From a virus (Duplodnaviria > Caudoviricetes), in the IMG/VR virus record IMGVR_UViG_3300037784_000034, positions 181 to 64,180 of that record: a stretch of DNA of 64,000 nucleotides; one strand, 5' to 3'. The position numbers were made by a program, and so were the translations under genes. The notes under the pieces were generated by a model. It saw only the letters and a program-made list of their open reading frames with translations, was not told where the DNA came from and did no database searches. Within the stretch, counting starts at the first letter, position 1, and each line of letters starts with the position of its first letter. Positions 3,761 to 49,771 of the stretch are shown here, piece by piece.

Positions 3761-4326
3761 GCTGCCACCTGCAAGATGACTTCGCGCTCGGCAAGTTCTT
3801 GCCGGCAATCTTCGGGCATAATGAACGGGACTGCGACGTAGAACAGCGTCCCTTCATGCTGAGCATATTTCATCGCCCGCACGAAGTTGGGCTTGGCATC
3901 GCAGGCGAAGTCGAACACGTCCGAAAACAGCAGCGGCTCCGTCACGCCATTTGCCCGGAGCGCTGCCTTTCGCGCCTCAAGAGCGTGGGGGAAGTCACAA
4001 GCGTATCCGATGCGGCGGGGCCGTTCTTGCTGGACAGGATCCCGGAAGGGCACGACAACGCGCGGCGCTGGCTTGGCATCAGGATCGCGGGGGATCGGTA
4101 TCATCGTGTTGTGCAATGGCTTCTCATCGCGGATCGCAATGGCTTCCGCATACAGCGCCCGCTCACGGGTTTCAAAGTGCTGCACATCCACCCACGCGAT
4201 ATCCCAGTACCAACCCGACTTGCTACGGTGCTGCCCGAGCCGAGCGACGTGACTGAGAGATACCCCGACATAGAGCAGTTGCCCCTTGGCGTCGAAGTGG
4301 CGGTACAGGCTCGTTCTGTCACCCAT
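3757..4326 (-). CDS. GIY-YIG nuclease fused to degenerate resolvase-like domain
   Basis: SLYRHFD..LLYVGVS..RLGQH..AEAIAIRDEKPLHN; C-terminal RRIGYACD..ALRANGV..LFSDV. Confidence 0.7.
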   Translation of the reverse strand: MGDRTSLYRHFDAKGQLLYVGVSLSHVARLGQHRSKSGWYWDIAWVDVQHFETRERALYAEAIAIRDEKPLHNTMIPIPRDPDAKPAPRVVVPFRDPVQQERPRRIGYACDFPHALEARKAALRANGVTEPLLFSDVFDFACDAKPNFVRAMKYAQHEGTLFYVAVPFIMPEDCRQELAEREVILQVAA

Positions 4327-6660: not shown

Positions 6661-7806
6661 CTATTTCTCCCTCTTCTTTGTTCGGGCATCGGCTACGCGC
6701 CGGGCTTGCTCCAGACCGCTGCCGCGAGCGTAGCGTCTGGTCATTTTCTCGCTGCTGTGGGTGGCGAGTTGCTGGGCGTCGGCAAGGGATCCGGTCGCTT
6801 CGTGCGTTTCCGTAACAGCGCCAGCGCGGCTGTCCATTGACCAGATCGTGTCTGACACGCCTGCAGCATCCCTGACCTCCCTCCACAGCTCTGTGTATCG
6901 GTTCTCCCAATAGGGCTTTCCGTAGCGCTCATCGATCACCACCGGCCCGATTTCGGGAAGAGGATAGGACTCGAGTGCGAGCATGACCAGCGGTAGCACT
7001 GTGAGATCACGCTCGACCTGGGCGCCTGTCTTGCTGGTCTCGAGCCTGAGAATCATATCCTTCCCGATCTGGCCGACCGTGAGCCCGCGCCAACGGAACG
7101 GGCCGTCTTCGGCAGGAAGCCACTCACCGATGATGTCGATGCGCCGGAGTCCTGTTTCAAACTGCATTGCCTGAACGAAGCCAAGCGAGGGGCAGCCCAT
7201 CTCGGCCGATTTCTCAACAATCGCGCGGCACTGTTCATATGTCATCATTGCGCGGCGCTGCGCCGGCTGCTCAAACCGCATAGACGACAGGATGGCCCGG
7301 GCGTCGGCACAGCCTGGCAAGCGTTCGCCGGCGCCATAGGTGAGAACCGCGCGCAGCATCTTCACCGCACCTGAAGCCCGGCGGTGTCCACTCTCCCGCC
7401 ACTTCTCAAACCACCGGCGAAAATCGGATGCACGAAGCTTGCTGATCTGACGATTGCCGACATTCTTTACGAGCACTCTCAGCGACGGCTCATAGTCCCG
7501 AATCCTTGTCGAGTGTTTGACGCGATGCAATGAAGAGGTCTGATCCCACATGAACCGATCGACGAGCGCTTTGATCGAGCCGTCGAACGCGGGCATGATT
7601 TCCTTGCCTATTAAGGTCTTGCGCAGATCCTCGGTCCACTCCTGACAGGCCGCGGCAACTTCTTCGTCGCTCAATCCGTCGGGAAGCCTGACCATCTTCA
7701 GTGTTTTCGGGGCGCCGGTAACGGCTCTTTGTGGGTTCCAGTAGTGCGCGGTCGTGCCGTCGCGGTTCTTCCTCGGCTGATAGCCGGGTCTGTCTCGTCT
7801 CATCAC
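6661..7806 (-). CDS. int: tyrosine integrase
   Basis: GLRRIDI (R), TSKTG (K), MDSRAG (R), ATHSS (H), TRRYAR (Y). Confidence 0.9.
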   Translation of the reverse strand: MMRRDRPGYQPRKNRDGTTAHYWNPQRAVTGAPKTLKMVRLPDGLSDEEVAAACQEWTEDLRKTLIGKEIMPAFDGSIKALVDRFMWDQTSSLHRVKHSTRIRDYEPSLRVLVKNVGNRQISKLRASDFRRWFEKWRESGHRRASGAVKMLRAVLTYGAGERLPGCADARAILSSMRFEQPAQRRAMMTYEQCRAIVEKSAEMGCPSLGFVQAMQFETGLRRIDIIGEWLPAEDGPFRWRGLTVGQIGKDMILRLETSKTGAQVERDLTVLPLVMLALESYPLPEIGPVVIDERYGKPYWENRYTELWREVRDAAGVSDTIWSMDSRAGAVTETHEATGSLADAQQLATHSSEKMTRRYARGSGLEQARRVADARTKKREK

Positions 7807-27602: not shown

Positions 27603-27950
27603 AAAAACGCCAAACCAGCGCCAGAGCAGCCTGTTAATCCGGCCCAATGGCTTGCCTTGCTGGCGCTCGACCTGGTCGAGGAATTCCGCATCGACACCGC
27701 GCCCAATATCTTTCGGCATGTCGGAGAACTTTACCTCCTCCACCATCCGCATGTATCCCTCGAAAAGCTCCGGCCGGCTGAATCTGTAGACCAACCGCGC
27801 CCGTTTTCCGATCTCTGCCTTGGCGTCGGTGAACGTCCGGCCGTGCCGCATCAGATCGGCGATGGCCTCGGTGGCGTGAAGCCTGACTTCATGGGCGGAC
27901 ATCACCTCCCAGCGCTGAAGTCCGAGCGCGTTGTTGCGCCAGCCGGTCAT
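27597..27950 (-). CDS. hypothetical protein
   Basis: Terminal ORF of leftward operon; coupled. Confidence 0.55.
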   Translation of the reverse strand: MTGWRNNALGLQRWEVMSAHEVRLHATEAIADLMRHGRTFTDAKAEIGKRARLVYRFSRPELFEGYMRMVEEVKFSDMPKDIGRGVDAEFLDQVERQQGKPLGRINRLLWRWFGVFL

Positions 27951-28231
27951 GCCATCACCATGTTGTGCTTAGCGGCGAACGCGGCGGATTTCTCCAAGAT
28001 CACCTGGTTCATTCCCTTGACGAAAGCGATGGCGGCCTTCTGGCGCCTGAACCCCTTCTGCGTCCAGCCGGATCGCGCAGGCCCACCAGTTGATGGACTC
28101 CAATAGACCCCTGGCAGGCGCAGAGCATAGCCCCATTTACATGTCGCGATTTCCCCGGCGAACCTACCATCGATCTCGATAAGAACGATCCCGCCCCGAA
28201 CGCGCTTCCGTTGAAAGGTGAGGGCGCTCAT
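27947..28231 (-). CDS. hypothetical protein
   Basis: MSALTFQ start, GGAG RBS, ATGA overlap. Confidence 0.6.
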   Translation of the reverse strand: MSALTFQRKRVRGGIVLIEIDGRFAGEIATCKWGYALRLPGVYWSPSTGGPARSGWTQKGFRRQKAAIAFVKGMNQVILEKSAAFAAKHNMVMA

Positions 28232-28479
28232 GCCGAATTCTCCTCGATATAGAAATTGACGACATCGAAGGCTGTTTCGAGCCCGCCAGGAAGCTTCAGA
28301 AGTGCCAACAGAACCGGAATGTGCGGCGGGATGTCCTTTACATCTTCCAGCCATAACAGAACGTTCTCATAGCGCGCCCCGGAGATCCTGGAGAGTTGCC
28401 CGGCTGTGATCCCAAGGGCGCTCAAGTCTTCCGACATGTCCTTGCCCGTCATCCGGGCGTATTTGTAGCGGGTGACCAT
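28228..28479 (-). CDS. XRE-like HTH protein
   Basis: LSALGITAGQLSRISGARYENVLLW; preceded by hairpin element. Confidence 0.65.
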   Translation of the reverse strand: MVTRYKYARMTGKDMSEDLSALGITAGQLSRISGARYENVLLWLEDVKDIPPHIPVLLALLKLPGGLETAFDVVNFYIEENSA

Positions 28480-28568
28480 AGTGGTTCCTTTCATGGTTTG
28501 CACGATTGCGGTGGTTCTGATCATTGATTCCGGGCGACGGCTCACCGGTCAATGGTGGGTTGTGGAGT

Positions 28569-28787
28569 TCAGCCAAAGCCGTTGATGAAATGCTTCATCG
28601 CTTCTGGTGTGCTCAATTGCCCGCTCATCATCAAGCCCATGCCAAGCATGATAGCGGGATGGGCTTCGGTCTCCGGGTGCTTGCCGAGGTCGCTTACCAT
28701 CGATGTATAGGCACTCTGCAGGTCGCCGATGTTGATGTATTCGAGGGCGCGCGCCTTGCACCACTCAATATGTTCAGATCGCGTCAA
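28569..28787 (-). CDS. hypothetical protein
   Basis: TTG start after GGAGG; 72 aa. Confidence 0.7.
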   Translation of the reverse strand: MTRSEHIEWCKARALEYINIGDLQSAYTSMVSDLGKHPETEAHPAIMLGMGLMMSGQLSTPEAMKHFINGFG

Positions 28788-28820
28788 GTTCTACCTCCTT
28801 TTCATGGTGGCAGGCTGCAC

Positions 28821-28967
28821 TCAGATCCCGTGAAGGATCGAATAGGCGGCGTCGTAACCGTCCATCCGGCGGCCGATATTCGGGGCGAATTTGTAGAGCG
28901 TGCGGGACAGCTTGAGCGATCCGCGCATTTCCAAAATCGCGGTGATAACGCCGATTGCGTAATTCAT
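28821..28967 (-). CDS. 48-aa hypothetical protein
   Basis: MNYAIGVITAILE.., AGGAG RBS; below track cutoff. Confidence 0.5.
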   Translation of the reverse strand: MNYAIGVITAILEMRGSLKLSRTLYKFAPNIGRRMDGYDAAYSILHGI

Positions 28968-29044
28968 GGCTGTGTTCTCCTGTTCTGGTTGATCGGGTGG
29001 CGGCTATCGACCTGGTGGGTCGCGGGCGGATGGTGTGGGGGTCA

Positions 29045-29254
29045 TTACTGGCCCTTCCATTCTGCGACGAACGCCTCGGCCTTCTCCCGGCTGTCGAAAG
29101 ACCCAACCAACTCGCCGAACGGGCCTTCGGTGAACACCTGCCATTGTGTGGCTTCATGCTCAGCGCAATCGTCCCATCCATTGCCTTCGCCGTAAGGTTC
29201 GTTCGACGGGAAAATACCGACTGGAAGGTTCCTGTCTGCTTTCATGGTGTTCAT
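29045..29254 (-). CDS. hypothetical protein
   Basis: MNTMKAD start with GGAG RBS; in frame with upstream ORF. Confidence 0.6.
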   Translation of the reverse strand: MNTMKADRNLPVGIFPSNEPYGEGNGWDDCAEHEATQWQVFTEGPFGELVGSFDSREKAEAFVAEWKGQ

Positions 29255-29575
29255 ACCCGCTCTCCTTTCGCTTTCTGGATTGCATCGCGGATTACCCGCA
29301 GGATTTCGTCGGGCCGGGTCGCGCCCGGCTCGGGGCTGTCGGCCTCGGCTTGGAGCCAGTGCTCGGCCTGTTCGAGAGCCAAGCATGCCGTCCTTGCGGA
29401 TAGGCTGGACGGCCCGCGCCTTGATGGCCGGGTCTGCAAAATCCGGCCCGTGGCTCATGTAGCCAGACTGGTCATTGATCAGGGTCCGGACCTCACGGCG
29501 GGCCTGGGCGGCTGTCATCCAGGCCGGAGCGGAAATCGTGACAGACATGGTGATCTGCTTGCGCTTGGCTCTCAT
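29045..29575 (-). CDS. hypothetical ORF lacking own stop (reads through into 29045-29254)
   Basis: MRAKRKQ start at ATGA overlap; no stop before 29045. Confidence 0.4.
   Translation of the reverse strand: MRAKRKQITMSVTISAPAWMTAAQARREVRTLINDQSGYMSHGPDFADPAIKARAVQPIRKDGMLGSRTGRALAPSRGRQPRAGRDPARRNPAGNPRCNPESERRAGMNTMKADRNLPVGIFPSNEPYGEGNGWDDCAEHEATQWQVFTEGPFGELVGSFDSREKAEAFVAEWKGQ
29251..29382 (-). CDS. 43-aa hypothetical protein
   Basis: TTG start 8 nt after AAGGA; ALEQAEHWL..IRDAIQKAKG. Confidence 0.45.
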   Translation of the reverse strand: MALEQAEHWLQAEADSPEPGATRPDEILRVIRDAIQKAKGERV

Positions 29576-30618
29576 GCTGCACCGCCTTCCGCGCCGTTGA
29601 CCTTTGACGCGACCCATTCCTGGTAGCTCTGGCGGGTGTCGCCGTTGGCAACCTCGGTCTGCCAGTCTTCGACCGGCAATTCGGTGTGACTGTCCCAATG
29701 GTGTGAAACAATCACCCCGTTTTTCATCAGGGCAACGCCAGGACTCTTGGCGGGATCAATTGCGAGGACAACGGTATCGGCGGGTGTCGGTGCTGCACCG
29801 CCTTCCGCCTTGGCAATTGCCGCCCGTACCTGTTCGAGCGCTGTCTCGAACATCGAGGCTTCGGGATCATCCCCCAGCACCTCGGCGAGACGGTCCTCTG
29901 CTTCCTTCAGGGCGTCGAGCATGGCTTGGGCCGCATCTTCAATTCGGGCAATCCGCTCTGCCTCGTCGTACGAGAAGTCTGCCCGTACCAGCCGAGCGCA
30001 ATCACGCACGACGACAGCGTCTTCATCGCAGCCTGTGCAATCAGCTTCATCATCAAGCGCCTTGGCAATTCGCTCACGTTCCTTGAGGATATCGTCCGCT
30101 GCATCGCGCACCGGGTCGGGTGTGCCTCCTTCGATCAGCCGCTCGCTGATCTCGACGTAGCAGTGGGCCGCGCCGTGGTATTCCTGGAGATGTTCGATCT
30201 CGGCGCTCCATGAGTTCGGCTTCGCGGTCTGATCCCATCCCTGATCGCCCAGCATGATGTTGACCATGGAGGCGGCCTCGATGTCTGCGTCCCGACGACT
30301 GGTGAACAGTTTCAGAGCGCGGCCCGGGACGCTGAAATGCTCGGCCTCGACCACATAGACCTTGCCGGTCGCGTCGGTGGGCACAAGCTTGCTCTCGCTG
30401 GCAAGGCCGTAGAGCGACACCGGAGGCGACATGACCGCGCCATCGGCAAAATCGTAGAGCTTGATGTCACGAGCGGCGAGTTCAAGGCCCTCGGAACTTT
30501 CGCGGCTTCCGGCCTGTTCTGCGACAATTGCCTCGGCGGCTTCCTCGCTCTCGGCATCCACATAGATTGTGGCGCACAGCCACACTTCGACGCCGTGGGA
30601 TTCGGTTTCATTGGTCAT
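29572..30618 (-). CDS. mosaic multi-domain hypothetical protein
   Basis: 348 aa, acidic; preceded by hairpin element. Confidence 0.75.
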   Translation of the reverse strand: MTNETESHGVEVWLCATIYVDAESEEAAEAIVAEQAGSRESSEGLELAARDIKLYDFADGAVMSPPVSLYGLASESKLVPTDATGKVYVVEAEHFSVPGRALKLFTSRRDADIEAASMVNIMLGDQGWDQTAKPNSWSAEIEHLQEYHGAAHCYVEISERLIEGGTPDPVRDAADDILKERERIAKALDDEADCTGCDEDAVVVRDCARLVRADFSYDEAERIARIEDAAQAMLDALKEAEDRLAEVLGDDPEASMFETALEQVRAAIAKAEGGAAPTPADTVVLAIDPAKSPGVALMKNGVIVSHHWDSHTELPVEDWQTEVANGDTRQSYQEWVASKVNGAEGGAA

Positions 30619-30653
30619 CGTGTTTTCCTTTCTCGGTTGCCACAATTGGCGGG

Positions 30654-30995
30654 TTATTCGTCGTCGTTGTCCCATTCGTAGACGGGCAAGCCGTCGATCT
30701 CTGGCCCGTCGCTGTCGAACAGGATGTAGTGACAGTCGTGAGCGTGGGCATGGCGGATAACCGGGTGCAAATCCTCCGGGATCCCGTTGTCGATACCGCC
30801 GTCTTCCTGGAGTGCGGGGGCGTGCATGAACCAGCCGTTGAGCGTTGCGCCCAAGGTGCTGATTGCCGCACCATTGCCGAAACCGTGGTAGCTGACTGCA
30901 TGGTTCAGCGTGGCGCTTTCCGAGACCCAGAGCCGGGCAGCCGGTGACAGATGCGCCGTTGAGGCGTCGAGGAACTTGCGGACGTGATCAGCCAT
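30654..30995 (-). CDS. DUF5983-like protein
   Basis: LDASTAHL, GWFMH, IPEDL, YILFDSDG..LPVYEW. Confidence 0.7.
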   Translation of the reverse strand: MADHVRKFLDASTAHLSPAARLWVSESATLNHAVSYHGFGNGAAISTLGATLNGWFMHAPALQEDGGIDNGIPEDLHPVIRHAHAHDCHYILFDSDGPEIDGLPVYEWDNDDE

Positions 30996-31219
30996 CAGAC
31001 TGCCTCCCCATCGACTTCAATGAGTTCGTCGTTCTCCGGGTCATCAAGCGAAACCTCGCAAGTGATCGGATCGCCATTCGGCCATGCGCCCAGGTTGGCG
31101 TCCGCCGCGTCAATGTGATCTTTCAGCATCTGCCGGGCTTCGGCCTCGCTGGTGGCCTTGACGCGGATCGCCGCAAAGAGTTTCACGTCAAAGGCGTATT
31201 CGTGGGTTTCGGGTGGCAT
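30995..31219 (-). CDS. hypothetical protein
   Basis: 74 aa; preceded by hairpin element. Confidence 0.7.
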   Translation of the reverse strand: MPPETHEYAFDVKLFAAIRVKATSEAEARQMLKDHIDAADANLGAWPNGDPITCEVSLDDPENDELIEVDGEAV

Positions 31220-31342
31220 TGTCGGTTTCCTTTTCGGTTCTCACAGTTGAGGGGATAGGGCCGGACCGCCCGCCGTTGCCGACGCATTGTCCGGTTTTGC
31301 AGCGCCCGGGACTTCCCGGGCCGTGGCGGTTTGAGGTGCCGA

Positions 31343-32548
31343 CTAGACCCGCATCGGCATAAGAACGCCGGTCCAGCCTTCAATCGAGCCGGTGAAAAGC
31401 GTGGGGCTTCCGCTGTCGCTGAATTTGGCCGTGATCGGCTCGCCCTTGCCAGCGCCAACCGCGATCATGTCCGCGAAGTATGAGCCATTGAAACCGATTT
31501 CGAGCGGGTCGCTTTCATAGGAGCATGCAACATCGGCATGGGCGGTCCCGGCGTCCGGATTGTTGACGGTCAACGCCGCGCTTCCTTCCGACAACTGGAA
31601 CTTGACAGCCCGGCCACGCTCAGAAGAAACCAGCGACACGGCGCGCACGGCTTCGGCCAGCGTGTCGGCATCGAACACCGCGACCTTGTCATTGCCGGTC
31701 GGAATAACCCGGTTGTAATCCGGGAAGGTGCCGTCAACCAGCTTCGTGGTCATGGTGACGTGAAAGCCGGAATGCTGCCAGGTGAACCGGGCCTTGGCTT
31801 CGGTGACCTCGATGCTGATCTGATCGGGGCACGCCTTGCCCCTCAGGAGCTTGTGCAAGAGCGTGATGGCCTTCCGGGGTATGATCACTCCGGGCATTGC
31901 TTCCGCGCCCTCAGGCAGCGCCATGACGCGACGGTAAAGCCGGTGCCCATCGGTCGCCACCATGATGAAATCGCCCTGGTACTCGTGAAAGAACATGCCA
32001 TTCAGATAATACCGGTCTTTCTCAGTCGATATCGCACCCATGACGGAATTGATCCCGTCCAGAATCGCCGGGCCGGTCATGGTGAAAGAGCGATAGGTCG
32101 AATCCGTTTCGCCGTCACGATCAAGCGGCGACGGGCCGCGAAGCGTCGGGAAGTCCGAACCGGGCAGGGCCTGCATGGTGTAGTTGACCCGCTCGAAATC
32201 GAGATTGACCGAATCCTGGTCATCATCGCGGTTGTGGGTGATCGAGACGTAATCGCTTGCCGTGGCCTTTTTCAGGAAATCGCGGAAATCGACCGCCGGA
32301 ATGGTGGTGTCAAGCCGGGAATCGGCGGCGGCGGGGATGGCGGCGACGAGTTCGAGATCTTCATCTGTACCGGTCACGAAAAGCGTTTGTCCGTCACCCT
32401 GCAGACGGCAATTGGCAAGAACGGGGATTGTGTTCCGGCGCTGGATGGCATTGGCGACGATATCGAGCGCCTGGGTAAGGCTGGCACGTTCTGCAATGGC
32501 GCTCGGAGCGGTGGCGGCGATGATTGCGGCGTTGTTCTGCATGGTCAT
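31343..32548 (-). CDS. dnaN: DNA polymerase III beta sliding clamp
   Basis: RNTIPVLAN, GTD, RYYLNG, VATDGHRL, LVDGTFPDYNRVIP, IGFN, LMPMRV. Confidence 0.93.
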   Translation of the reverse strand: MTMQNNAAIIAATAPSAIAERASLTQALDIVANAIQRRNTIPVLANCRLQGDGQTLFVTGTDEDLELVAAIPAAADSRLDTTIPAVDFRDFLKKATASDYVSITHNRDDDQDSVNLDFERVNYTMQALPGSDFPTLRGPSPLDRDGETDSTYRSFTMTGPAILDGINSVMGAISTEKDRYYLNGMFFHEYQGDFIMVATDGHRLYRRVMALPEGAEAMPGVIIPRKAITLLHKLLRGKACPDQISIEVTEAKARFTWQHSGFHVTMTTKLVDGTFPDYNRVIPTGNDKVAVFDADTLAEAVRAVSLVSSERGRAVKFQLSEGSAALTVNNPDAGTAHADVACSYESDPLEIGFNGSYFADMIAVGAGKGEPITAKFSDSGSPTLFTGSIEGWTGVLMPMRV

Positions 32549-32636
32549 TCTGAATTCCTTTTCTGGTTGTCACAATTGACGGTGGCGCGATTGCACCGGA
32601 ATCCGGCCCGAAGGCCGGTAACCGCTGAAATCCGGC

Positions 32637-33188
32637 CTATGCGGCCCGGCGCTTGGCTTCGGCCTTCATGTCGACTTCCCATTGCTGGACAATCTCGACA
32701 TATCGCCGACCGTTACGGCGCTTCGTCTTGATCCGCTTTTCGGTGTGAGCTGTCGCCCATTCCCGGCGCGTTTCGGTTTGAGCTTGGACCCTGGATTCGC
32801 GCGCCATCTTGTAGAGCGTGTAAAGCAAGGCATATTGCAGCCGCTCCGGAAGCGCGGTTATGTGGTCGGCCAGGTCGCCGCCGTCATAGAAGGACGGCAC
32901 GCGCCACACTTCCCGCCCGCCGCCGTGGTGAACCAGCAAATAAAAATCCCGGTCATTCGCCTGTTTTGCGAGCTTGATTGCGTGGCTGTCATAGGTCACG
33001 CCGGGGCTGCCATCCTTGCGCGGAAAATGGCGGGATTCGCGAGCTTTCTTGCCAAATGCGGATTCCCATTCGTCGCCGTTCTGGTGCAACGGCGCGGCGA
33101 TGATTTCGAAGCCGTCGAATGCTTCGCAGCGGCCTTTTTCGCTATGGTTTTCGTAGCCGTGGCCGGTCCTGATAAGCACATCTTGCAT
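32637..33188 (-). CDS. hypothetical protein
   Basis: MQDVLIR start; preceded by hairpin element. Confidence 0.7.
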   Translation of the reverse strand: MQDVLIRTGHGYENHSEKGRCEAFDGFEIIAAPLHQNGDEWESAFGKKARESRHFPRKDGSPGVTYDSHAIKLAKQANDRDFYLLVHHGGGREVWRVPSFYDGGDLADHITALPERLQYALLYTLYKMARESRVQAQTETRREWATAHTEKRIKTKRRNGRRYVEIVQQWEVDMKAEAKRRAA

Positions 33189-33228
33189 GGTCTGAATTCC
33201 TTTCCTTGATGGTCGCCACGATTGGCGG

Positions 33229-33330
33229 TTAAGAGATCCCCGCCGCGACCAGCACACAGGCCGCGACAAAGAGAGAGATTGAGACAAGAGCGGCGATGTC
33301 CTGAGCAAAGGCCTTGATGCGGGCGATCAT
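33229..33330 (-). CDS. 33-aa membrane peptide
   Basis: MIARIKAFAQDIAALVSISLFVAACVLVAAGIS; ATGA overlap. Confidence 0.5.
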   Translation of the reverse strand: MIARIKAFAQDIAALVSISLFVAACVLVAAGIS

Positions 33331-33599
33331 TCGATCACCTCGACAGCATCGACCGGCGCCCACACATAGTAGTGTTTCGAATCGTGCCCGAATATCGACC
33401 ATGTCCCGGCCTTGCCAGCGCTGCCAGCATCGCAAGAGGCGGGCGGAATGGCCCATTTATCGCCCTCGGTTCCGCTGGCATTCTCGATCAACTCAAGCCG
33501 GGTTCCGGCCTTGGCTTTGACTTCGTACCCGCGGCGGGGATCGCCGCCGCCGTTGAACATCACGGACACATCACGGGATAGGATGGCGCGCGGGCTCAT
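33327..33599 (-). CDS. hypothetical protein
   Basis: 90-aa coupled ORF. Confidence 0.65.
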   Translation of the reverse strand: MSPRAILSRDVSVMFNGGGDPRRGYEVKAKAGTRLELIENASGTEGDKWAIPPASCDAGSAGKAGTWSIFGHDSKHYYVWAPVDAVEVIE

Positions 33600-35614
33600 G
33601 CTTCACCCCTTTCCAGAACAACCAGAATAGAGGCGGTGCCGGTGCCGGATTCCTTGAACGATCCGGCGGGCAGGTCGATGCGTTCGCCGCCGTGATCGTC
33701 AAACCAGTCGCGGAATTCCTGCGATTTGCGATCCGACCGGAAAAACGGTCCCGGCGACATGACGGAAACCAGCCGACCGCCCGGCTTAAGCATGTCGAAT
33801 GCCCGCATGATGTGTTCCGCGTCCTGCCCCTTCTCAAAGGGCGGGTTCATCAACACGAAATCAAACGCGGTTCCCGGTTCAAATTCGGTGAAATCGGACC
33901 CGGCCAGGTTCGCGCCCTTGGCTCCCAGAATGTCCCGGAGCGTCCCCCACTTCTCGCATGCGGTTACGGTCGCCATCGGCCGGACTTCGGCCAAAGCGTC
34001 AATGATCGCACCATGTCCGGCGCTTGGCTCGAGCACGTCGCAAGCCGAATGGCTCGGGATGTCGGCAAGGTCAATCATTCGGTCGATGACCGCGCGCGGC
34101 GTCGGGAAATACCCGGGGATATTGGCGAACTTCAAGCCGTCGACCTTGCGGCGCAAGGCTTCCGCCTTTTCCTGTTCCGGATCATTGCCGCCGATCAGCG
34201 CCCAGATTGCGAGCGCTTCCGGCGTATCATGGCGCGGCTTGCCGGTGTCGAATCCGGCATCATAGTAACCGCCGGTGTGTTCGATCTTGGAGCGGGCAAG
34301 GTCGAGAATTGCCGCCTTAGTCCGGACGCTGGCCAGCGCTTCGGGCACGGTTCCGGCGTCGTGGTGATCTGCAAGCGCCCGCATTGCCTTTTGTGCCCGT
34401 TCAAGGTGCACGCCATCCATGCGCGCGCTTGCGGCTTCCCGTTGCTGTTTCGGCGTATTGGTTCGCCGGTCCGCGAATTTGTGGTCAATGTCCTTTTGCA
34501 GCCGGTCGGCCATTTCCCGGAGCTTGTCCGCAATCGGCGGCGCGGCCTTGGCAGGGGAAGCCGGCGCATTGTCCGGCGTTGCCTGGGTATCGCTTCCGCC
34601 CGCGAATGCTTCCGCATTGTCGCGGCTCTTGAAGGCAAAGCCGCCCGGTGTCTTTCCCCATGGCTTCGAATACCAGCCGCCAAGGCTCTTTGCATGGTCC
34701 AGCAAGCGCATGTATTCGGCGCGGTCGACACGCTCAGGCAAGATGCAAATGAACATCTGAAAGCCCTTTTTCGTGTGCGTGTGTTCTTCGATCCGGACGC
34801 CATCGAGCGCCGGGCCGCGATTGTGCCCGATCATGCCGGACTGTTGCGGCGTGGGCTCCGGCTTCGCTTCCGGCTCCGGGATTGACCATTCAGCCGGGAA
34901 GGGCAGGGATTTGACCGGATCAGCATCATAAAAGCGCTGTTTGGAAACCTGCCAGCCGGAGCGGTGCCGCCATTCCTTTTTGAGGTAATAGCCGCCGCCC
35001 ATTGAGTATTTTTCGCGGTGTTCGGCGGTGTCGGGCGCGTCGGCAAGATCGGCGGTTTCCGGGTGATGGCGTGCCGCTTGGCGCATTTCCGGGAAAAGGT
35101 CGCGGGTATGCTTGGAGAAAGCAAGAATGATCCGGCGCTTGACGGTCGATCCGAAGTAGTCGGATTGAGAATCGCAATCATCTTGCTTCAATTCAGCAAT
35201 GATGACGGCTTTTGCCCATGTCGGGATTTTGGCGCGATATTCATCCTGAAAGGCTTTCAGGTTTTCATTGTGCGCGATCCGGTCCCGCTCAAGTTTCGCG
35301 TGAAAATCGGCGCGTTTCTGCATGGCCTTTGCCAGCATTTCAGCCGCCATATTGTCGCCGATCGGCTCAAGCCGGTATTGCGCCGCGTCCCGGATCCAAT
35401 CAGCCGCGATACTGTCCGGAACTTCGGAGATTGTGAGATCTTCCCAAACGATTGTCAGCCTGGACCGGGTCGGAGTCATACCGCCGCCGCCGATCACGTA
35501 TGAGGGCACGTCCGGCGCTTCGACCTTCACAATATGGCCGCTCTGGCCTTGCGGTGACCAGTAAACGGCGGTTCCGACTGTCGCGGCGGTGGTGTTTTCG
35601 AGCGTGTTTTGCAT
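33596..35614 (-). CDS. multidomain N6-adenine DNA methyltransferase
   Basis: C-terminal YFPTP, VLEPSAGHG, VLMNPPF; about 490 aa of N-terminal domains. Confidence 0.85.
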   Translation of the reverse strand: MQNTLENTTAATVGTAVYWSPQGQSGHIVKVEAPDVPSYVIGGGGMTPTRSRLTIVWEDLTISEVPDSIAADWIRDAAQYRLEPIGDNMAAEMLAKAMQKRADFHAKLERDRIAHNENLKAFQDEYRAKIPTWAKAVIIAELKQDDCDSQSDYFGSTVKRRIILAFSKHTRDLFPEMRQAARHHPETADLADAPDTAEHREKYSMGGGYYLKKEWRHRSGWQVSKQRFYDADPVKSLPFPAEWSIPEPEAKPEPTPQQSGMIGHNRGPALDGVRIEEHTHTKKGFQMFICILPERVDRAEYMRLLDHAKSLGGWYSKPWGKTPGGFAFKSRDNAEAFAGGSDTQATPDNAPASPAKAAPPIADKLREMADRLQKDIDHKFADRRTNTPKQQREAASARMDGVHLERAQKAMRALADHHDAGTVPEALASVRTKAAILDLARSKIEHTGGYYDAGFDTGKPRHDTPEALAIWALIGGNDPEQEKAEALRRKVDGLKFANIPGYFPTPRAVIDRMIDLADIPSHSACDVLEPSAGHGAIIDALAEVRPMATVTACEKWGTLRDILGAKGANLAGSDFTEFEPGTAFDFVLMNPPFEKGQDAEHIMRAFDMLKPGGRLVSVMSPGPFFRSDRKSQEFRDWFDDHGGERIDLPAGSFKESGTGTASILVVLERGEA

Positions 35615-35675
35615 GTTCTCAGGTTCCTTTATTGGCGCTCACAATTGAGCTGGATTCTTCGGGGTGTGGTCTGGT

Positions 35676-35861
35676 TCAGGCGTTCTGAAAAGCTTCCATG
35701 CAAACGCGGTTGAATTCGCGTTCATGCATAGTCGCAAGCTGGTTATGGCTTGGCAGGGTATCCGCCCGGACTGTCCGGACAGTCATCGCCGCCTTGCACT
35801 CGATTTGAATGCCGCCGAATCCATCACTCCGGAGTCGCCATTTTTTGCTGTCGATGTCCAT
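35676..35861 (-). CDS. hypothetical protein
   Basis: 61 aa; GAGGAA RBS and hairpin element. Confidence 0.6.
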   Translation of the reverse strand: MDIDSKKWRLRSDGFGGIQIECKAAMTVRTVRADTLPSHNQLATMHEREFNRVCMEAFQNA

Positions 35862-35982
35862 TTTCAGTTCCTCAATTGGTGGCCACAATTGGCCTGTTAT
35901 CGGCTCTATCAGCCGGGAAACATCACCACGCGGTGAGGTCGCCGGGATGATAGGAGCGCGGCCCGGAAGCCGCGCGCCGGTG

Positions 35983-36246
35983 TCATGCGCGCCGGTTGCG
36001 CCGTTCGGCTCTAATTTCCTTGCGGAATTGCCGGACAAAGGACTCATTCGCGCCGCGCAACTGGTCGGCGGCGACTTCATAGGCATGACGCGCCGCCTTG
36101 AATTCAGGGGAGAACTTGACCGCGTCGGGTGTCAATCCATTCGGGCCGCGCGGGAATGATTGCAAGGCGGCGCTTGCGGCTTTCACGTCTGCCTCAATTT
36201 CGGCAATCCGGGCTTTTGCGGCTTCATAGGTCCAAGGGGCTGGCAT
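35983..36246 (-). CDS. hypothetical helical protein
   Basis: 87-aa ORF. Confidence 0.65.
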   Translation of the reverse strand: MPAPWTYEAAKARIAEIEADVKAASAALQSFPRGPNGLTPDAVKFSPEFKAARHAYEVAADQLRGANESFVRQFRKEIRAERRNRRA

Positions 36247-36249
36247 GGT

Positions 36250-36588
36250 TCAAGCCCCTTCCGTCTGGAGTGTCACCACGTCGAAAACGATTTTCGGAAT
36301 CTGGTATCCGTTGCCGTCCGGATCATAGGCCCAATAGTACCGCTTAGCCTTGAGCTTCGCCATGTATTCGGATTGTTGGCGTTGATCCATCCGGTTGAAT
36401 TTCACGCGGTTGTAATCAATCATTCCGTCGGATTCTTCAAAGGTCAGGCCGCGCGCGGCATGTTCCTTTTCAAGTTTGGCGCGCAATGTGGCCACGCCAT
36501 CCGAAAAACGGAATTGCTTGTCCAAGGCCTTTTCGACGCGTCCGCGCGCCATTGGCGAAAGGCTGTCGAGATTGAAAAGCGTTGCCAT
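36250..36588 (-). CDS. hypothetical protein
   Basis: 112-aa ORF. Confidence 0.7.
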   Translation of the reverse strand: MATLFNLDSLSPMARGRVEKALDKQFRFSDGVATLRAKLEKEHAARGLTFEESDGMIDYNRVKFNRMDQRQQSEYMAKLKAKRYYWAYDPDGNGYQIPKIVFDVVTLQTEGA

Positions 36589-36591
36589 GGC

Positions 36592-36735
36592 TCATTCCCC
36601 CGCGCGGATTGTCAGCCCATCGACCAGAAAAGCCGACTTTTGAGCGATGCGCGCGCGCCGGTCATTGCGGCGGATCTTGCCGGGGTTGGAATTGGCGAAC
36701 GTGTCGCGGTTGCGTTTTTCGGAGTGTGTGAACAT
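36592..36735 (-). CDS. 47-aa basic peptide
   Basis: MFTHSEKRNRD..; AGGAA RBS and hairpin element; below track cutoff. Confidence 0.55.
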   Translation of the reverse strand: MFTHSEKRNRDTFANSNPGKIRRNDRRARIAQKSAFLVDGLTIRAGE

Positions 36736-36786
36736 GGTTTTTCCTTTCATGGTGGCCACGATTGGCCGTTTCAGTCGGTCGGGGTT

Positions 36787-37452
36787 TCAGGCCGCGCGGG
36801 CGTCTTCAAGGGCATATCCGCCCCATTGTTCCGCCATGGCGCGCGCGATACCGGGGAAAAAGCGGCTGCGTTCGGTTGCCCGATCCGGTCCCGGTGATGC
36901 GAAGTGAACGCTATTCCGCGCGTTCGAGCCGTCCAGCGTGCCTGTAGGGACAAGCGGCGGAAGGCCGCGAAGCCAAAGACAGGTGCGTTTCTTCTCATTG
37001 TCCGGGCCTTCCGGATCGGTCGCGAACTGCCAAGGCTGGACCGATTGCGCTTGAGGCTGGAAATTCACGATCCGGCTTTTCGCATGCTTGTGCATGACCG
37101 GGTTTTCAATCGCCACACGGTCAATCGGCGCATTCCAGAGATCCGAAAAGAGCGCCGCGCCTTCGTCAAGCTCTTTCCACATTTCCTCAATGGTCCGGCC
37201 GGGTGGCGGTACGGAAAGCCAACGGACACCGGAGTTGCAAAGCCGCGTGCAAGGCGGATGCGCGACCATGAGCAAATCCCAGCCCCAATCAAGCACATCA
37301 CGGACATCGCCGCGCAAGTGCCGATTTGATCCGCGTTCATCCGGCTTGATGTCGCAGGACCACGCATCATGACCAAGGTCTAGGAATGCATCGCGGACAG
37401 TGCCGGAGCACTCGCACGCGATCAGGACTTTAAGAGCGGGTGAAATGTTCAT
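36787..37452 (-). CDS. C5-cytosine methyltransferase-like protein
   Basis: VLIACECSG, WSCDI, HPPCT, IENP. Confidence 0.7.
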   Translation of the reverse strand: MNISPALKVLIACECSGTVRDAFLDLGHDAWSCDIKPDERGSNRHLRGDVRDVLDWGWDLLMVAHPPCTRLCNSGVRWLSVPPPGRTIEEMWKELDEGAALFSDLWNAPIDRVAIENPVMHKHAKSRIVNFQPQAQSVQPWQFATDPEGPDNEKKRTCLWLRGLPPLVPTGTLDGSNARNSVHFASPGPDRATERSRFFPGIARAMAEQWGGYALEDARAA

Positions 37453-37541
37453 TGTTCTGTTTTCCTCTGTTGGCGGTCACGATTGACCATTGTTGGCTAG
37501 TCGCCACTGGATAGGCGCGCGCGGCGCCTATCGGGCAGGGA

Positions 37542-37877
37542 CTAGGATTCGTCCAGCCAAAAACCGGCATTGCGCGCCATGTTCCAAGCCGCATTCCATA
37601 GGGCTTGATCCGCTTCCCGTTGCACGTCCGTTGCGCCTTCCGTGATGGTGTAGGGCTCCCTTTTCAAGACGTTCTCGAACGCGGCCAACATGGCCATATT
37701 CGCGTCGAAAAAATCATGGGTGGCGCATGCTCCGGCATAGTCCGGACTTGCGTTCAAGGTGTTGATGTCAAGGACAAGCGATCCGATGGTTTGCCCGTTC
37801 TCGACGTCCAGAGCGCTTGCAGCTTCTCGCAAGGTCGCGGCAAAGGCGCGCGCGAGGGGTTCGGTTTGGTCTGTCAT
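37542..37877 (-). CDS. hypothetical protein
   Basis: MTDQTEP start with GAGGG RBS. Confidence 0.65.
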   Translation of the reverse strand: MTDQTEPLARAFAATLREAASALDVENGQTIGSLVLDINTLNASPDYAGACATHDFFDANMAMLAAFENVLKREPYTITEGATDVQREADQALWNAAWNMARNAGFWLDES

Positions 37878-37887
37878 GGCCACGCCC

Positions 37888-38373
37888 TCAAACAACTGAC
37901 AGCAATTCCCGGCACATACGACCGCGCGAAAAGGTCTGGACGGTCACGTTTCCATGATCAGTGACAAAGCAAGCCATACCGGAAAAGCCGCGCGGGACAC
38001 CGTCACCAGCATCGAGCCGAATATCGCAATCCTCAATCGCGGACTCGACGGAGTACCAGAAGCCGACAGAGCCTTGACCGTCGGCTTTGCCAAAATGGAT
38101 GTATTCATTGCGGGTTTTGCGTTGTGCCCATGCGGTCAACATCTCGTCGACCTCGTCGAACCATTCATGCATGCGCTCACAGTCGAAGCCGTTGCACTCG
38201 TCGGCGTCGACCACGCTGGCCAGATTGTCGCCTTCATTGGCTAGAGCCGCAAAGCCGCGCGGCCTGTAATAGCGAAGCTCCCGCGCATAGGACGCGACAC
38301 GGTCGGAGTCATTCATCTGGTCTGTGTCGAAGGCTTCGCCCATGATGGGGTTGTGGGTTTTGCGGTTTGCCAT
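37888..38373 (-). CDS. acidic hypothetical protein
   Basis: 161 aa; preceded by hairpin element. Confidence 0.7.
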   Translation of the reverse strand: MANRKTHNPIMGEAFDTDQMNDSDRVASYARELRYYRPRGFAALANEGDNLASVVDADECNGFDCERMHEWFDEVDEMLTAWAQRKTRNEYIHFGKADGQGSVGFWYSVESAIEDCDIRLDAGDGVPRGFSGMACFVTDHGNVTVQTFSRGRMCRELLSVV

Positions 38374-38424
38374 GGTTCATGTTCCTTGATGGTTGCCACG
38401 ATTGGCAGATTGAAAGAGCGGGGT

Positions 38425-38580
38425 TTAGCTGGCCATAAAGTCCAGCCATGCACCGCGCGGGCAGGCGTCCGGATGGTTTGCCAGCAACCAGACCCGCGCA
38501 TCGGTCCGGAGTTCTGAAAAGCGAATAAGACCGTTGAGGTAAGCCCGGGCTTGTTCGTTCTTGACTGTGGTGGTGTTCAT
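38425..38580 (-). CDS. 51-aa first gene of leftward operon
   Basis: AAGGAA RBS and hairpin element. Confidence 0.6.
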   Translation of the reverse strand: MNTTTVKNEQARAYLNGLIRFSELRTDARVWLLANHPDACPRGAWLDFMAS

Positions 38581-38620
38581 GGGTTCGTTTCCTTGCTGGT
38601 AAGCACGATTGCTTAAGCAC

Positions 38621-38671
38621 ACAGTCTCATACGTTGACGGATAGGTCAATAAAAAAATACGCAAACGCATA
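38621..38671 (-). promoter_or_regulatory. leftward promoter with two operators
   Basis: TTGACC-17nt-GACTGT; palindromes at 38628 and 38656. Confidence 0.55.
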
Positions 38672-38870: not shown

Positions 38871-38913
38871 TATACGGATAAGGATTGACACAATGCGTAT
38901 GCGTATGACATGA
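38871..38913 (+). promoter_or_regulatory. rightward promoter with two operators
   Basis: TTGACA at 38885; palindromes at 38871 and 38892; -10 box unclear. Confidence 0.55.
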
Positions 38914-48433: not shown

Positions 48434-49771
48434 ATGAAGACGCTTGAACAGCTTCGCGCCGAGCTGACCAAAGCCCTCGGCGCGCTTGACACCTTCGAAA
48501 AGGGAATCAAGGGCGATGACGGCAACCCGCGCGACATGACGGAAGCCGAGTTTGATGAGCACGCAAAGCTCATTGATGTCGTTGAGGCGGCGGTCAAGGC
48601 CGTTGATGCCCGTGAAAAGTCGGATCGTATCCGCGCCACGTTTGGTGCCCCCGCGGACGGCGAGCAGGGCCGCGTCCCGGCATCCCCGAAGGCTGACCCG
48701 GAGCAGTTCCGCTCCTTCGGTGAGTTCCTGACCGCCGTTGCTCAGGACGGAATGAACAAGGGCGACATCAGTTCCCGCGACAAGCGCCTGAAGTGGGAAA
48801 TGATCAAGGCGGCCGGCGCCAACGAAGCAGTGCCTTCTGAAGGTGGCTTCCTGGTGCAGACCGACCACTCGACCGAACTTCTCGGCATGATGCACGAGAT
48901 GGGCGATATCATGAGCCGTGTCCGCGACATCCCGATTTCGAGCAATTCGAACGGGATCTCCCTCCCGGCGATCGACCAGACCTCGCGCGCAACCGGCTCC
49001 CGCTTTGGCGGCGTTCGCACCTATTGGGCGAATGAAGGCGACACGGTGAACGCTTCGAAGCCGAAGCTCCGCTCGATCGAACTCAAGCTGAACAAGCTGA
49101 TGGGCATCGGTTACATGACCGAGGAACTTCTCGCCGACGCCGGCGCGATGGAAGCGATCATGAAGACCGCGTTCGCTGAGGAATTGACGTTCACCACGGA
49201 AGACGCCTTCGTCAATGGGGACGGCTCCGGCAAGCCGCTGGGTTTCCTGAACTCCGGCGCTCTGGTGACTGTGCCTGCTGTGTCGGGACAGGCCTCCGGG
49301 TCAATCGTGACAGCCAACGTGCTGAATATGTGGGACCGGATCCCGACGCGTTCGCGCCGCAACGCGGTGTGGCTTGTCGCCGACAGCCAGGTCGAAACGC
49401 AGCTTCAGTCGCTGGTTCTGGGCTCCGGAACTGCGGTGACCCAACTCTACAAGGTGCCGGGGACGAACCCTGCCACGCCGGCGAACGCTGTGTTTGGCAC
49501 CTTGCTTGGTCGCCCGGTTATCCCGGTCGAGTACATGGCTCAGCTCGGCACGCCCGGCGACATCGCGCTTGTCGATCTCAGCCAGTACCTGAAAGCCGAC
49601 AAGGGTGGCATGAAGCAGTCGCAGTCGATCCACGTCCGCTTCCTGCAGGACGAGATGACCTTCAAGGTCACCTACCGCGTCGACGGCCAGCCCGCTTGGC
49701 ACTCCCCGCTCACCCCTGCCAATGGTTCGCTGGCGACCAAGTCGCCCTTCGTCGCCCTGGCAGCGCGCTAA
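48434..49771 (+). CDS. major capsid protein (HK97 fold)
   Basis: Coiled-coil delta domain, EGGFLV, FVNGDGSGKPLG, LLGRPV, RVDG. Confidence 0.93.
   Translation: MKTLEQLRAELTKALGALDTFEKGIKGDDGNPRDMTEAEFDEHAKLIDVVEAAVKAVDAREKSDRIRATFGAPADGEQGRVPASPKADPEQFRSFGEFLTAVAQDGMNKGDISSRDKRLKWEMIKAAGANEAVPSEGGFLVQTDHSTELLGMMHEMGDIMSRVRDIPISSNSNGISLPAIDQTSRATGSRFGGVRTYWANEGDTVNASKPKLRSIELKLNKLMGIGYMTEELLADAGAMEAIMKTAFAEELTFTTEDAFVNGDGSGKPLGFLNSGALVTVPAVSGQASGSIVTANVLNMWDRIPTRSRRNAVWLVADSQVETQLQSLVLGSGTAVTQLYKVPGTNPATPANAVFGTLLGRPVIPVEYMAQLGTPGDIALVDLSQYLKADKGGMKQSQSIHVRFLQDEMTFKVTYRVDGQPAWHSPLTPANGSLATKSPFVALAAR

Follow-up and report, generated by a model that had tools for sequence, protein, structure and literature searches.

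The locus studied here raises the question of what a small hairpin may be doing when it is repeated eleven times in one phage operon, each time directly ahead of a ribosome-binding site. The stretch of DNA analysed (the window) comprises 64,000 nucleotides of the virus record IMGVR_UViG_3300037784_000034, covers nearly the whole of that 64,180-bp record and has a G+C content of about 59%. The hairpins are found on its minus strand, in an operon of about 23 cistrons running from ~38,615 to ~27,600. The feature is real and strongly selected. Our favoured reading, held tentatively and somewhat short of being probable, is that of a candidate operator in the messenger RNA (mRNA), lying 8-10 nt 5' of the Shine-Dalgarno (SD) sequence and bound by a regulator of the same module for translational control.

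An earlier reading of the letters alone (the sequence-only reading) had listed eleven copies, and all of these were recovered at their places by pattern searches as well as by a covariance model. The composite search pattern consisted of the core CAAYYGTG, 4 nt, CC, 2-5 nt and AGGAA, the stem pairs being left unspecified, and it gave 11 matches in the window, where 100 shuffles gave 0; all 11 are minus-strand matches lying from 28485 to 38611. The bare core CAAYYGTG was found to be barely enriched in the window (16 observed vs 9 expected). On the coding strand the consensus reads AACC, a variable stem of 1-4 bp, C-A, the loop AYYG, U-G, the returning stem, R, CC and R; it continues with 2-4 nt, AAGGAA, 5-11 nt and the ATG, the SD starting 8-10 nt past the hairpin stem. 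All eleven copies are in sense orientation with the core 22-29 nt from the ATG, and GTG is separated from CC by 4 nt in every one of them, which bears out the fixed spacing of GG described earlier for the plus strand. The SD behind the hairpins is uniformly (A)AGGAA, whereas the other genes of the phage have varied SDs.

The covariance model (R1; 46 positions with 5 pairs, built on 33 copies from 4 phages) has retrieved exactly 11 copies from the window with scores of 36.6-47.7 bits, and the next-best match reached 15.3 bits, so that the claim of no copy in the other operons also holds. This next match is a lone GUC-AAUCGU-GAC hairpin at 49299-49317 (+) in the capsid gene region with no SD or start codon behind it, and it is probably due to chance. 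The Rfam search, at gathering and at permissive thresholds, has shown no match to the element, and only two tRNAs and sub-threshold noise were reported.

The anatomy of the element is that of a hairpin of 14-20 nt, with a short stem of 3-6 bp, an invariant C-G and a near-invariant A-U pair next to the loop, and the loop ANNG. A logo of 54 copies from six lineages shows little or no variation in the C, A and A that open the core or in the U and G that close it; the loop ends in G in 53 of 54, CC is found at the fixed 4 nt in 52 of 54, and AACC is conserved more weakly 5' of the stem. The outer pairs vary and yet remain complementary, as had been claimed. In the window the first outer pair is Watson-Crick in 11/11 copies (C-G in five, U-A in four and G-C in two), the second in 10/11 and the third in 7/11. 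Among the 33 copies from four phages, pair 8-17 was found to be CG in 16, UA in 13 and GC in four with none unpaired, and pair 7-18 to be GC in 21, CG in seven and AU in one. The covariation score of these 33 copies is 0.389 as compared to 0.109 ± 0.021 in shuffles, and it falls to 0.12 or less when the 3' partners are slid by 1-3 columns. An alignment of 110 copies from 13 lineages scores 0.435 (0.123 in shuffles); the selection of these copies demanded the first outer pair, and only the other pairs are informative there. None of 500 shuffles reached the observed score. Across the lineages the closing C-G is invariant, A-U is kept in 91 of 108 copies, and pairs 8-17 and 7-18 occur with 3-5 pair types. 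The same behaviour is seen at orthologous sites, the hairpin before the gene of a 47-amino-acid (aa) protein having the stems GGC/GCC, UGU/ACA and GCU/AGC in three phages.

These results support the view that the element works as a folded single strand and not as a duplex protein site, because compensatory change would be left without a reason if the site were a duplex. The core claim of the sequence-only reading, a phage-specific element recognised as a folded single strand, is thus upheld by the covariation, by the strict orientation and by the absence of the element from the host chromosome. Further, mRNA is the economical reading of the folding strand, since all copies are sense-oriented with a fixed relation to the SD and the ATG.

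Action at the level of DNA, as a single-stranded DNA (ssDNA) hairpin promoter of the N4/Frpo type, as a priming or recombination site or as a stoperator-like duplex repressor site, is considered extremely improbable. It would find some agreement in the mismatches at the stem base, which are mostly a C opposite an A on the sense strand (that is, G.T on the other strand), in the A.C that G052 has at the second pair, and in the orientation of all sites one way with respect to transcription, like stoperators. However, the C/A pattern is what the flanks, C-rich 5' and A-rich 3', show in general, so the "T-G extensions" that had been put forward as a sign of an ssDNA role do not discriminate, and at the A-U pair G.U outnumbers A.C by 13 to 3 in the 110 copies. 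Wobble pairs were also considered as proof of the folding strand and this was rejected, as G.U occurs in G005, G157, G083 and G080 but G052 has its A.C at the same pair. The option of an ssDNA promoter like that of the N4 virion RNA polymerase or plasmid Frpo is not supported: no RNA polymerase gene is present among the annotated genes of the window, the largest open reading frame being that of the tape measure, and the hairpins have no -35/-10 in the stem and are far smaller than Frpo, which is about 300 nt long. The Cluster A stoperators share with the element the many intergenic copies oriented with one direction of transcription, but they are duplex sites, identical to the promoter operator and without covariation, whereas here the stems covary and the promoter operator differs. 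Moreover, the tie to SD and ATG in more than 100 copies has no rationale at the DNA level.

All copies lie on the minus strand and are numbered in the direction of transcription. Copy 1 (38574..38619; 41.7 bits) has the stem UAAG/CUUA, the core CAAUCGUG, A-CC-A and AAGGAA, and precedes a 51-aa gene with its ATG at 38580; its 5' base lies at the +1 placed by eye. Copy 2 (38367..38412; 46.9 bits) precedes a 161-aa gene (ATG 38373), copy 3 (37446..37493; 42.3 bits) a 221-aa DNA methyltransferase of phrog_757 (ATG 37452), and copy 4 (36729..36772; 45.8 bits) the gene of the 47-aa protein, which is arginine-rich (ATG 36735). Copy 5 (35855..35899; 45.2 bits) is found before a 61-aa gene (ATG 35861), copy 6 (35608..35655; 38.9 bits) before a 672-aa protein with a C-terminal methyltransferase domain (ATG 35614), and copy 7 (33183..33232; 36.6 bits) before a 183-aa gene (ATG 33188). 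Copy 8 (32542..32586; 47.1 bits) serves dnaN (ATG 32548), followed by copy 9 (31213..31257; 41.3 bits) before a 74-aa gene (ATG 31219) and copy 10 (30612..30656; 47.7 bits) before a 348-aa gene (ATG 30618). Copy 11 (28473..28516; 40.4 bits), with the shortest stem, precedes the gene of an 83-aa Xre-type helix-turn-helix (HTH) protein (ATG 28479). The service of dnaN, of both methyltransferase genes and of eight others of 47-348 aa is therefore as the sequence-only reading had described it.

The placement of the hairpins follows the gaps between the genes. Among the cistrons with an upstream gap of at least 33 nt, 11 of 13 carry a hairpin, and none of about nine translationally coupled cistrons, which overlap or abut the previous stop, does so. 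One of the two unlabelled gapped cistrons is a gene with a TTG start (28787), and it is preceded by what appears by eye to be a decayed twelfth copy (28794..28818, minus strand; GCA-GCC-UGC and then caCCAugaAAAGGAGG), a possible remnant at which the covariance model gave no match in the window. No U tract is found behind the hairpins, as a terminator role would ask. Two further hairpins stand next to copy 8. A register-shifted variant (32581..32597, minus strand; GGUGC-AAUC-GCGCC-ACC), with a U.G pair on the sense strand, lies just 5' of this copy, and a strong CCGGCC-UUCG-GGCCGG hairpin (32602-32617, minus strand) is found 5' of the variant, in the interval that separates dnaN from the 183-aa gene. 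Both are conserved in the window, L130, L212 and L261.

The search of other genomes, for which a covariance model had been suggested as a check, has revealed arrays of the same element or of variants, with 3-14 copies each, in 12 further phage or prophage lineages, giving more than 100 copies in 13 lineages. In the IMG/VR records these are G002 (9 copies), G001 (4), G005 (9), G157 (13), G158 (5) and G159 (10), the Logan contig L261 has 9, and the prophages G080, G152, G052 and G083 have 10, 11, 4 and 3. A prophage in the chromosome of a Hoeflea sp. (L130) has a dnaN 84% identical to that of the window. The 4.3-Mb Hoeflea genome gave 12 model matches at E <= 1e-5, all in one prophage, the next having an E of 0.08; the plain-pattern matches outside the prophage are at chance level and within genes, and use of the motif by the host was rejected on this basis. 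In the family of the host, 2 of 151 genomes match the covariance model. By its distribution, the element belongs to the module and not to the host. Variation among the lineages is seen in the last loop base, which is A in G080, G152 and G159, in the CC, which is absent from these same three, and in the closing pair, which differs in G052 and L262. The operon of L130 opens with two tandem copies (4159-4240) that are 36 nt apart, and the ATG of the first overlaps the second hairpin.

Among the four options that the sequence-only reading had left side by side, the protein-bound translational operator is the best supported, by the position, the conserved loop, the linked HTH and arginine-rich genes and the precedent of Aca1/Aca2. 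The predicted hairpin energies are weak (-1.7 to -8.3 kcal/mol), and the flanks, rich in A and C (AACC before the stem, R-CC-R after it), are single-stranded. A trans-acting reader is favoured because the stems are weak and the loop has been kept across lineages whose proteins are 30-50% identical. The hairpin and the ribosome-binding site would then form one cis-acting mRNA unit, and a regulator from the same mobile early module would bind the hairpin inside the 30S footprint. Such binding would set the translation of all independently initiated cistrons at once, most likely by repression, and the coupled genes downstream would follow the translation of their hairpin-led cistron. A post-transcriptional regulon covering the whole operon would result, with a design like that of the hairpin operators of Aca1/Aca2, and for it the 83-aa HTH protein would be the preferred reader and the 47-aa arginine-rich protein the second choice. 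As a side effect, the module of ~40 nt may act as portable homology for cassette exchange between otherwise unrelated phages. No complementarity of the loop to the start codon or the SD and no pseudoknot between loop and RCC was seen by inspection. For some copies, 2 bp between the CC and the GG of the SD are predicted, and as both sides are invariant, covariation is uninformative on this point.

The start of the operon brings in another possibility, that of a processing or stability signal. A putative operon promoter has been noted by eye only at 38621..38649 on the minus strand, with TTGACC (38649-38644), 17 nt and GACTGT (38626-38621); G005 has a better one, CTTGAC-17-TATGGT, 7 nt 5' of its hairpin. 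Copy 1 lies 0-15 nt from the start of the by-eye promoter in the window, in L130 and in G005. The by-eye promoter would place the first nucleotide of the RNA at the foot of hairpin 1, but the consensus promoter scan of the window did not call it, and the +1 at about 38614 claimed by the sequence-only reading was confirmed by no tool. A primary transcript beginning with the same hairpin would suit a scheme in which a host or phage ribonuclease cuts the polycistronic RNA at or next to each hairpin and uncouples the decay of the cistrons, so that all units share one 5' hairpin or hairpin-R-CC-R is left at the end of the unit upstream, and the R-CC-R at fixed spacing in the CC-bearing lineages would suit it as well. 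RNase P is conceivable as the enzyme, the hairpin with R-CC-A resembling a tRNA acceptor minihelix with discriminator and CCA. The scheme, although the main rival of the operator reading, is nevertheless judged unlikely. The stems are too weak against exonucleases and too short for RNase III, the sites of which in T7 are duplexes of ~20 bp with an internal loop; no conserved AU-rich site of the RNase E type is present, the loop is not T-loop-like, and no nuclease gene was recognised in the hairpin module. In addition, CC-R is CCG in many copies, and the CC is absent from the variants of G080, G152 and G159.

The neighbourhood of the hairpins in related phages bears on whether any reader is needed. 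The phages that share the hairpins share hardly any other genes, and their structural genes are unrelated: G001, G002 and the fetched region of the Hoeflea prophage have nothing corresponding to those of the window (44-61 kb), and in G005 only TerL, portal and capsid match, at 23-39% identity. On this evidence the hairpin-bearing operon is a mobile module. Between the window and the Hoeflea prophage the homologous genes are ~84% identical, and the hairpin-plus-SD islands of copies 2, 9 and 10 are 96-100% identical over 38-47 nt amid unrelated genes; copy 2 is 100% identical over 38 nt between unrelated genes. The hairpin modules thus mark mosaic joints, probably as short homology. L130 lacks a cassette made of copy 7 and the 183-aa gene that the window has, and the ends of this cassette have in common only a CCG, not equivalent points of two hairpins. 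With regard to the suggested check of whether gene gain or loss breaks at the hairpins, the islands stand at mosaic joints, and the one resolved indel did not run from hairpin to hairpin. The related option of a cassette recombination site gains from the identity islands and loses by the CCG microhomology; no sign of site-specific recombination was seen, and the window has no integron-type integrase. Nor is an integron-like site supported. Integron attC sites are 57-141 bp long with R''/L''-L'/R' boxes and stand 3' of each cassette, with IntI beside the array. The element here differs in being 5' of the gene and fused to the SD, with only an ordinary phage integrase 20 kb away.

These islands, the cassette absent from L130 and the lack of almost any other shared gene would also be expected of a cis-only part of the ribosome-binding site without a reader, in which the hairpin insulates the SD, the uniformity results from descent and gene conversion, and the module serves in evolution mainly as a homology linker for the shuffling of cassettes, like the PeSL cassettes of T4-type phages. 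We regard this as decidedly unlikely, since insulation would not require the C-G and A-U pairs to be invariant, the loop to be conserved or the CC to be fixed, and specific bases kept across 13 lineages while the stems drift compensatorily amount to purifying selection. The end of the resolved indel in CCG microhomology, not inside the hairpins, also goes against it. It is possible, though doubtful, that the operator reading and the exchange of cassettes come together in a system of standard parts, in which every independently translated cistron of a mobile early or anti-defence module has one label and a uniform SD, one small protein of the module reads all labels on the mRNA and switches the gene set post-transcriptionally, and the same label serves as homology for cassette exchange.

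The candidate readers were looked for among the genes that travel with the hairpins. The 83-aa Xre-type HTH protein (28228..28479, minus strand), encoded behind copy 11, is predicted by an AF2 model (pLDDT 90.5) to be a five-helix Xre-type HTH. Its Foldseek neighbours include HigA2, MqsA-C, the controller C-proteins of restriction-modification systems, Aca2 (7vjo) and Aca10 (7xi5), the likeness to Aca2 and Aca10 being at the level of the fold only (TM ~0.6). The protein gave no match in Pfam and only weak matches to PDB profiles, of which the single HTH-type one is HigA-like (3cec, E 0.8). The profile of this family, whose members come in a short form and in a longer one with an additional N-terminal domain, matches 13/13 array-bearing lineages, including four that were fetched solely via the hairpin pattern (G157 at 1e-13, G158 at 6e-8, G159 at 7.5e-15 and G080 at 2.5e-11). 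In the reverse test, the HTH was found in 6 of the 151 host-family genomes, and five of these six have hairpin-plus-SD arrays upstream on the same strand; the sixth has the weakest match and a different architecture.

The 47-aa arginine-rich protein (36592..36735, minus strand; core GKIRRNDRRARIAQKSAFL) is encoded behind copy 4 and is found in about half of the 13 lineages, all of them with the CC-bearing element. A word-seeded search of 5.8 billion proteins gave nine relatives, and the contigs fetched via this protein alone and long enough to judge (L261, L262-L264) have hairpins beside the gene. G005 has a divergent form of it, as G001 may have too; the ESM Atlas offered nothing of use on the protein. 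As a universal reader it is weakened by its absence from G157, G158, G159 and the G080 prophage region, and by L262, where the variant hairpin differs while the protein hardly does.

The same protein suggests an antitermination of the nut type, where it would bind the hairpins as lambda N binds boxB and a termination-resistant polymerase would run along the 11-kb operon. The likeness to lambda N/nut consists of a small hairpin in the nascent RNA with a small arginine-rich protein of the same operon, the RRNDRRA of this protein being comparable to the RRRERRA of lambda N, and of one boxA-like word. The latter, CGCTCTTTCAA at 38410-38420 (minus strand), is non-coding, resembles the boxA consensus of rrn and lambda nut and lies 6 nt 5' of copy 2, in the order of lambda nutL. 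The hairpins beside the gene in the judgeable contigs of its homologues agree with such a role too. We consider it very unlikely even so: BLASTP gave no alignment of the protein to N, four array-bearing lineages and in all about half of the lineages are without it, and the loop is ANNG and not a GNRA-like pentaloop. The boxA-like word was noticed post hoc and occurs at about one copy only, so it is not general among the copies; few terminator-like sites are present in the operon, and the eleven sites tied to an SD would be left unexplained.

Several results weigh against the mRNA operator read by a module protein. The 83-aa HTH protein gave no match by sequence to the described Aca families, and in six lineages the HTH gene is not hairpin-led and may form a separate transcription unit. 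The absence of the arginine-rich protein from four array-bearing lineages tells against the second candidate. Moreover, the 672-aa methyltransferase-domain protein and DnaN are nearly as widely shared as the HTH, so the co-occurrence may reflect one conserved module. The wobble evidence on the folding strand is mixed (13 G.U vs 3 A.C), and the promoter DNA operator, made of TGCGT repeats, is unlike the hairpin in sequence, whereas the DNA and RNA sites of Aca proteins are related. These tandem TGCGT(A/T) repeats, ATGCGTTTGCGTAT and ATGCGTATGCGTAT, flank the divergent promoter region in inverted orientation (38657-38670 and 38893-38906 in the window), and G152 has AACGCA-N5-TGCGTT 5' of its HTH gene. 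With regard to the 672-aa protein (33596-35614, minus strand), homologues of the whole or of ~190 aa of it occur in every hairpin-bearing lineage, and its C-terminal methyltransferase domain matches giant phage proteins of 1,200-3,900 aa in PHROGs.

The closest precedent for the operator reading is provided by the HTH proteins Aca1 and Aca2, which bind covarying hairpins that start at the transcription start site and end ~20 nt before the start codon, and similar motifs also occur between genes inside anti-defence operons (PMC13551039). The element resembles the Aca sites, also those of Aca10 and Aca12, in being a short hairpin with invariant and covarying pairs, in having intergenic copies within the operon, in the small Xre-type HTH gene of the same operon and in the proposed block of ribosome access. 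In comparison, the core is here 22-29 nt from the ATG and the transcription start is a by-eye prediction only. The differences are the phage HTH without a sequence match to Aca families, 11-14 copies per operon instead of 1-3, the DNA operator unrelated to the hairpin, and hosts from the Alphaproteobacteria. The cargo appears to differ as well: the operon carries two orphan DNA methyltransferases, DnaN and many genes without assigned function, with no known anti-CRISPR (Acr) gene, none having been recognised among the operon genes although no search against an Acr set was made.

The second comparison is with the Start-Associated Sequences (SAS/ESAS) of Cluster K mycobacteriophages, where a 13-bp GGGATAGGAGCCC is found at the ribosome-binding site along with 17-bp imperfect inverted repeats, and where the authors found little support for pairing of the ESAS arms in mRNA (PMC3203893). 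SAS-like or inverted motifs are also present in the Microbacterium phage clusters EF and EG (PMC7302621). Both systems have an asymmetric phage-specific motif fused to the ribosome-binding site, with 10-19 copies in one orientation and none in the host, confined to non-structural genes with gaps, mostly with ATG starts, and conserved before unrelated genes. The sequences are unrelated, the SAS hosts are Actinobacteria, and the pairing is here kept by compensatory change. As compared to Aca and SAS/ESAS, what differs is the sequence, the host group, the copy number of 11-14 per operon, the clear covariation and the unrelatedness of hairpin and operator. A third system, the PeSL (promoter-early stem-loop) cassettes of T4-type phages, consists of repeated stem-loop modules between small early genes (PMC2839356). 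The likeness is that the stem-loop modules coincide with joints of insertion, deletion and replacement; the difference is that PeSL carries an early promoter by name, whereas the present operon has a single promoter and its modules bring along the SD. The PeSL stem-loop is reportedly terminator-like.

In phages, repeats associated with start codons (SAS/ESAS) have been on record since 2011 with no mechanism for them, and the RNA-binding HTH regulators of anti-defence operons are very recent. The element described in our study links the two; its covariation is unusually clean, its copies number more than 100 across 13 lineages, and there are two candidate readers for it. If the operator reading is true, RNA-operator control would no longer be limited to one or two sites per operon but would include, in Alphaproteobacteria, a regulon spanning a whole operon, and it would be explained how cassettes entering such modules gain regulation at once. 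Regulation and modular gene exchange would then be built on one element among unrelated alphaproteobacterial phages, and this could provide a compact, portable translational operator for the engineering of rhizobia and relatives.

The window comes from a temperate siphovirus-type phage of Hoeflea-like bacteria. The sequencing runs listed for it are of DNA from pond and other metagenomes, with none of RNA. The genes recognised include an integrase (6661-7806), RecT, an exonuclease, a DnaB-type helicase, TerL, portal, an HK97-type capsid and a 1026-aa tape measure. A search for near-identity to cultured phages with the window gave no match, and the dnaN relatives in cultured phages, for example in phage 16-3, are distant; after the Hoeflea prophage, the next-best dnaN matches are host genes of Rhizobiaceae-like bacteria. 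Near the end of the operon, a 135-aa frame (27947-28354, minus strand) is seen as a truncated remnant of a HerA/FtsK-like ATPase gene. In G001, G002, the Hoeflea prophage and G083 this ATPase has 527-538 aa, and its gene there stands after the HTH gene.

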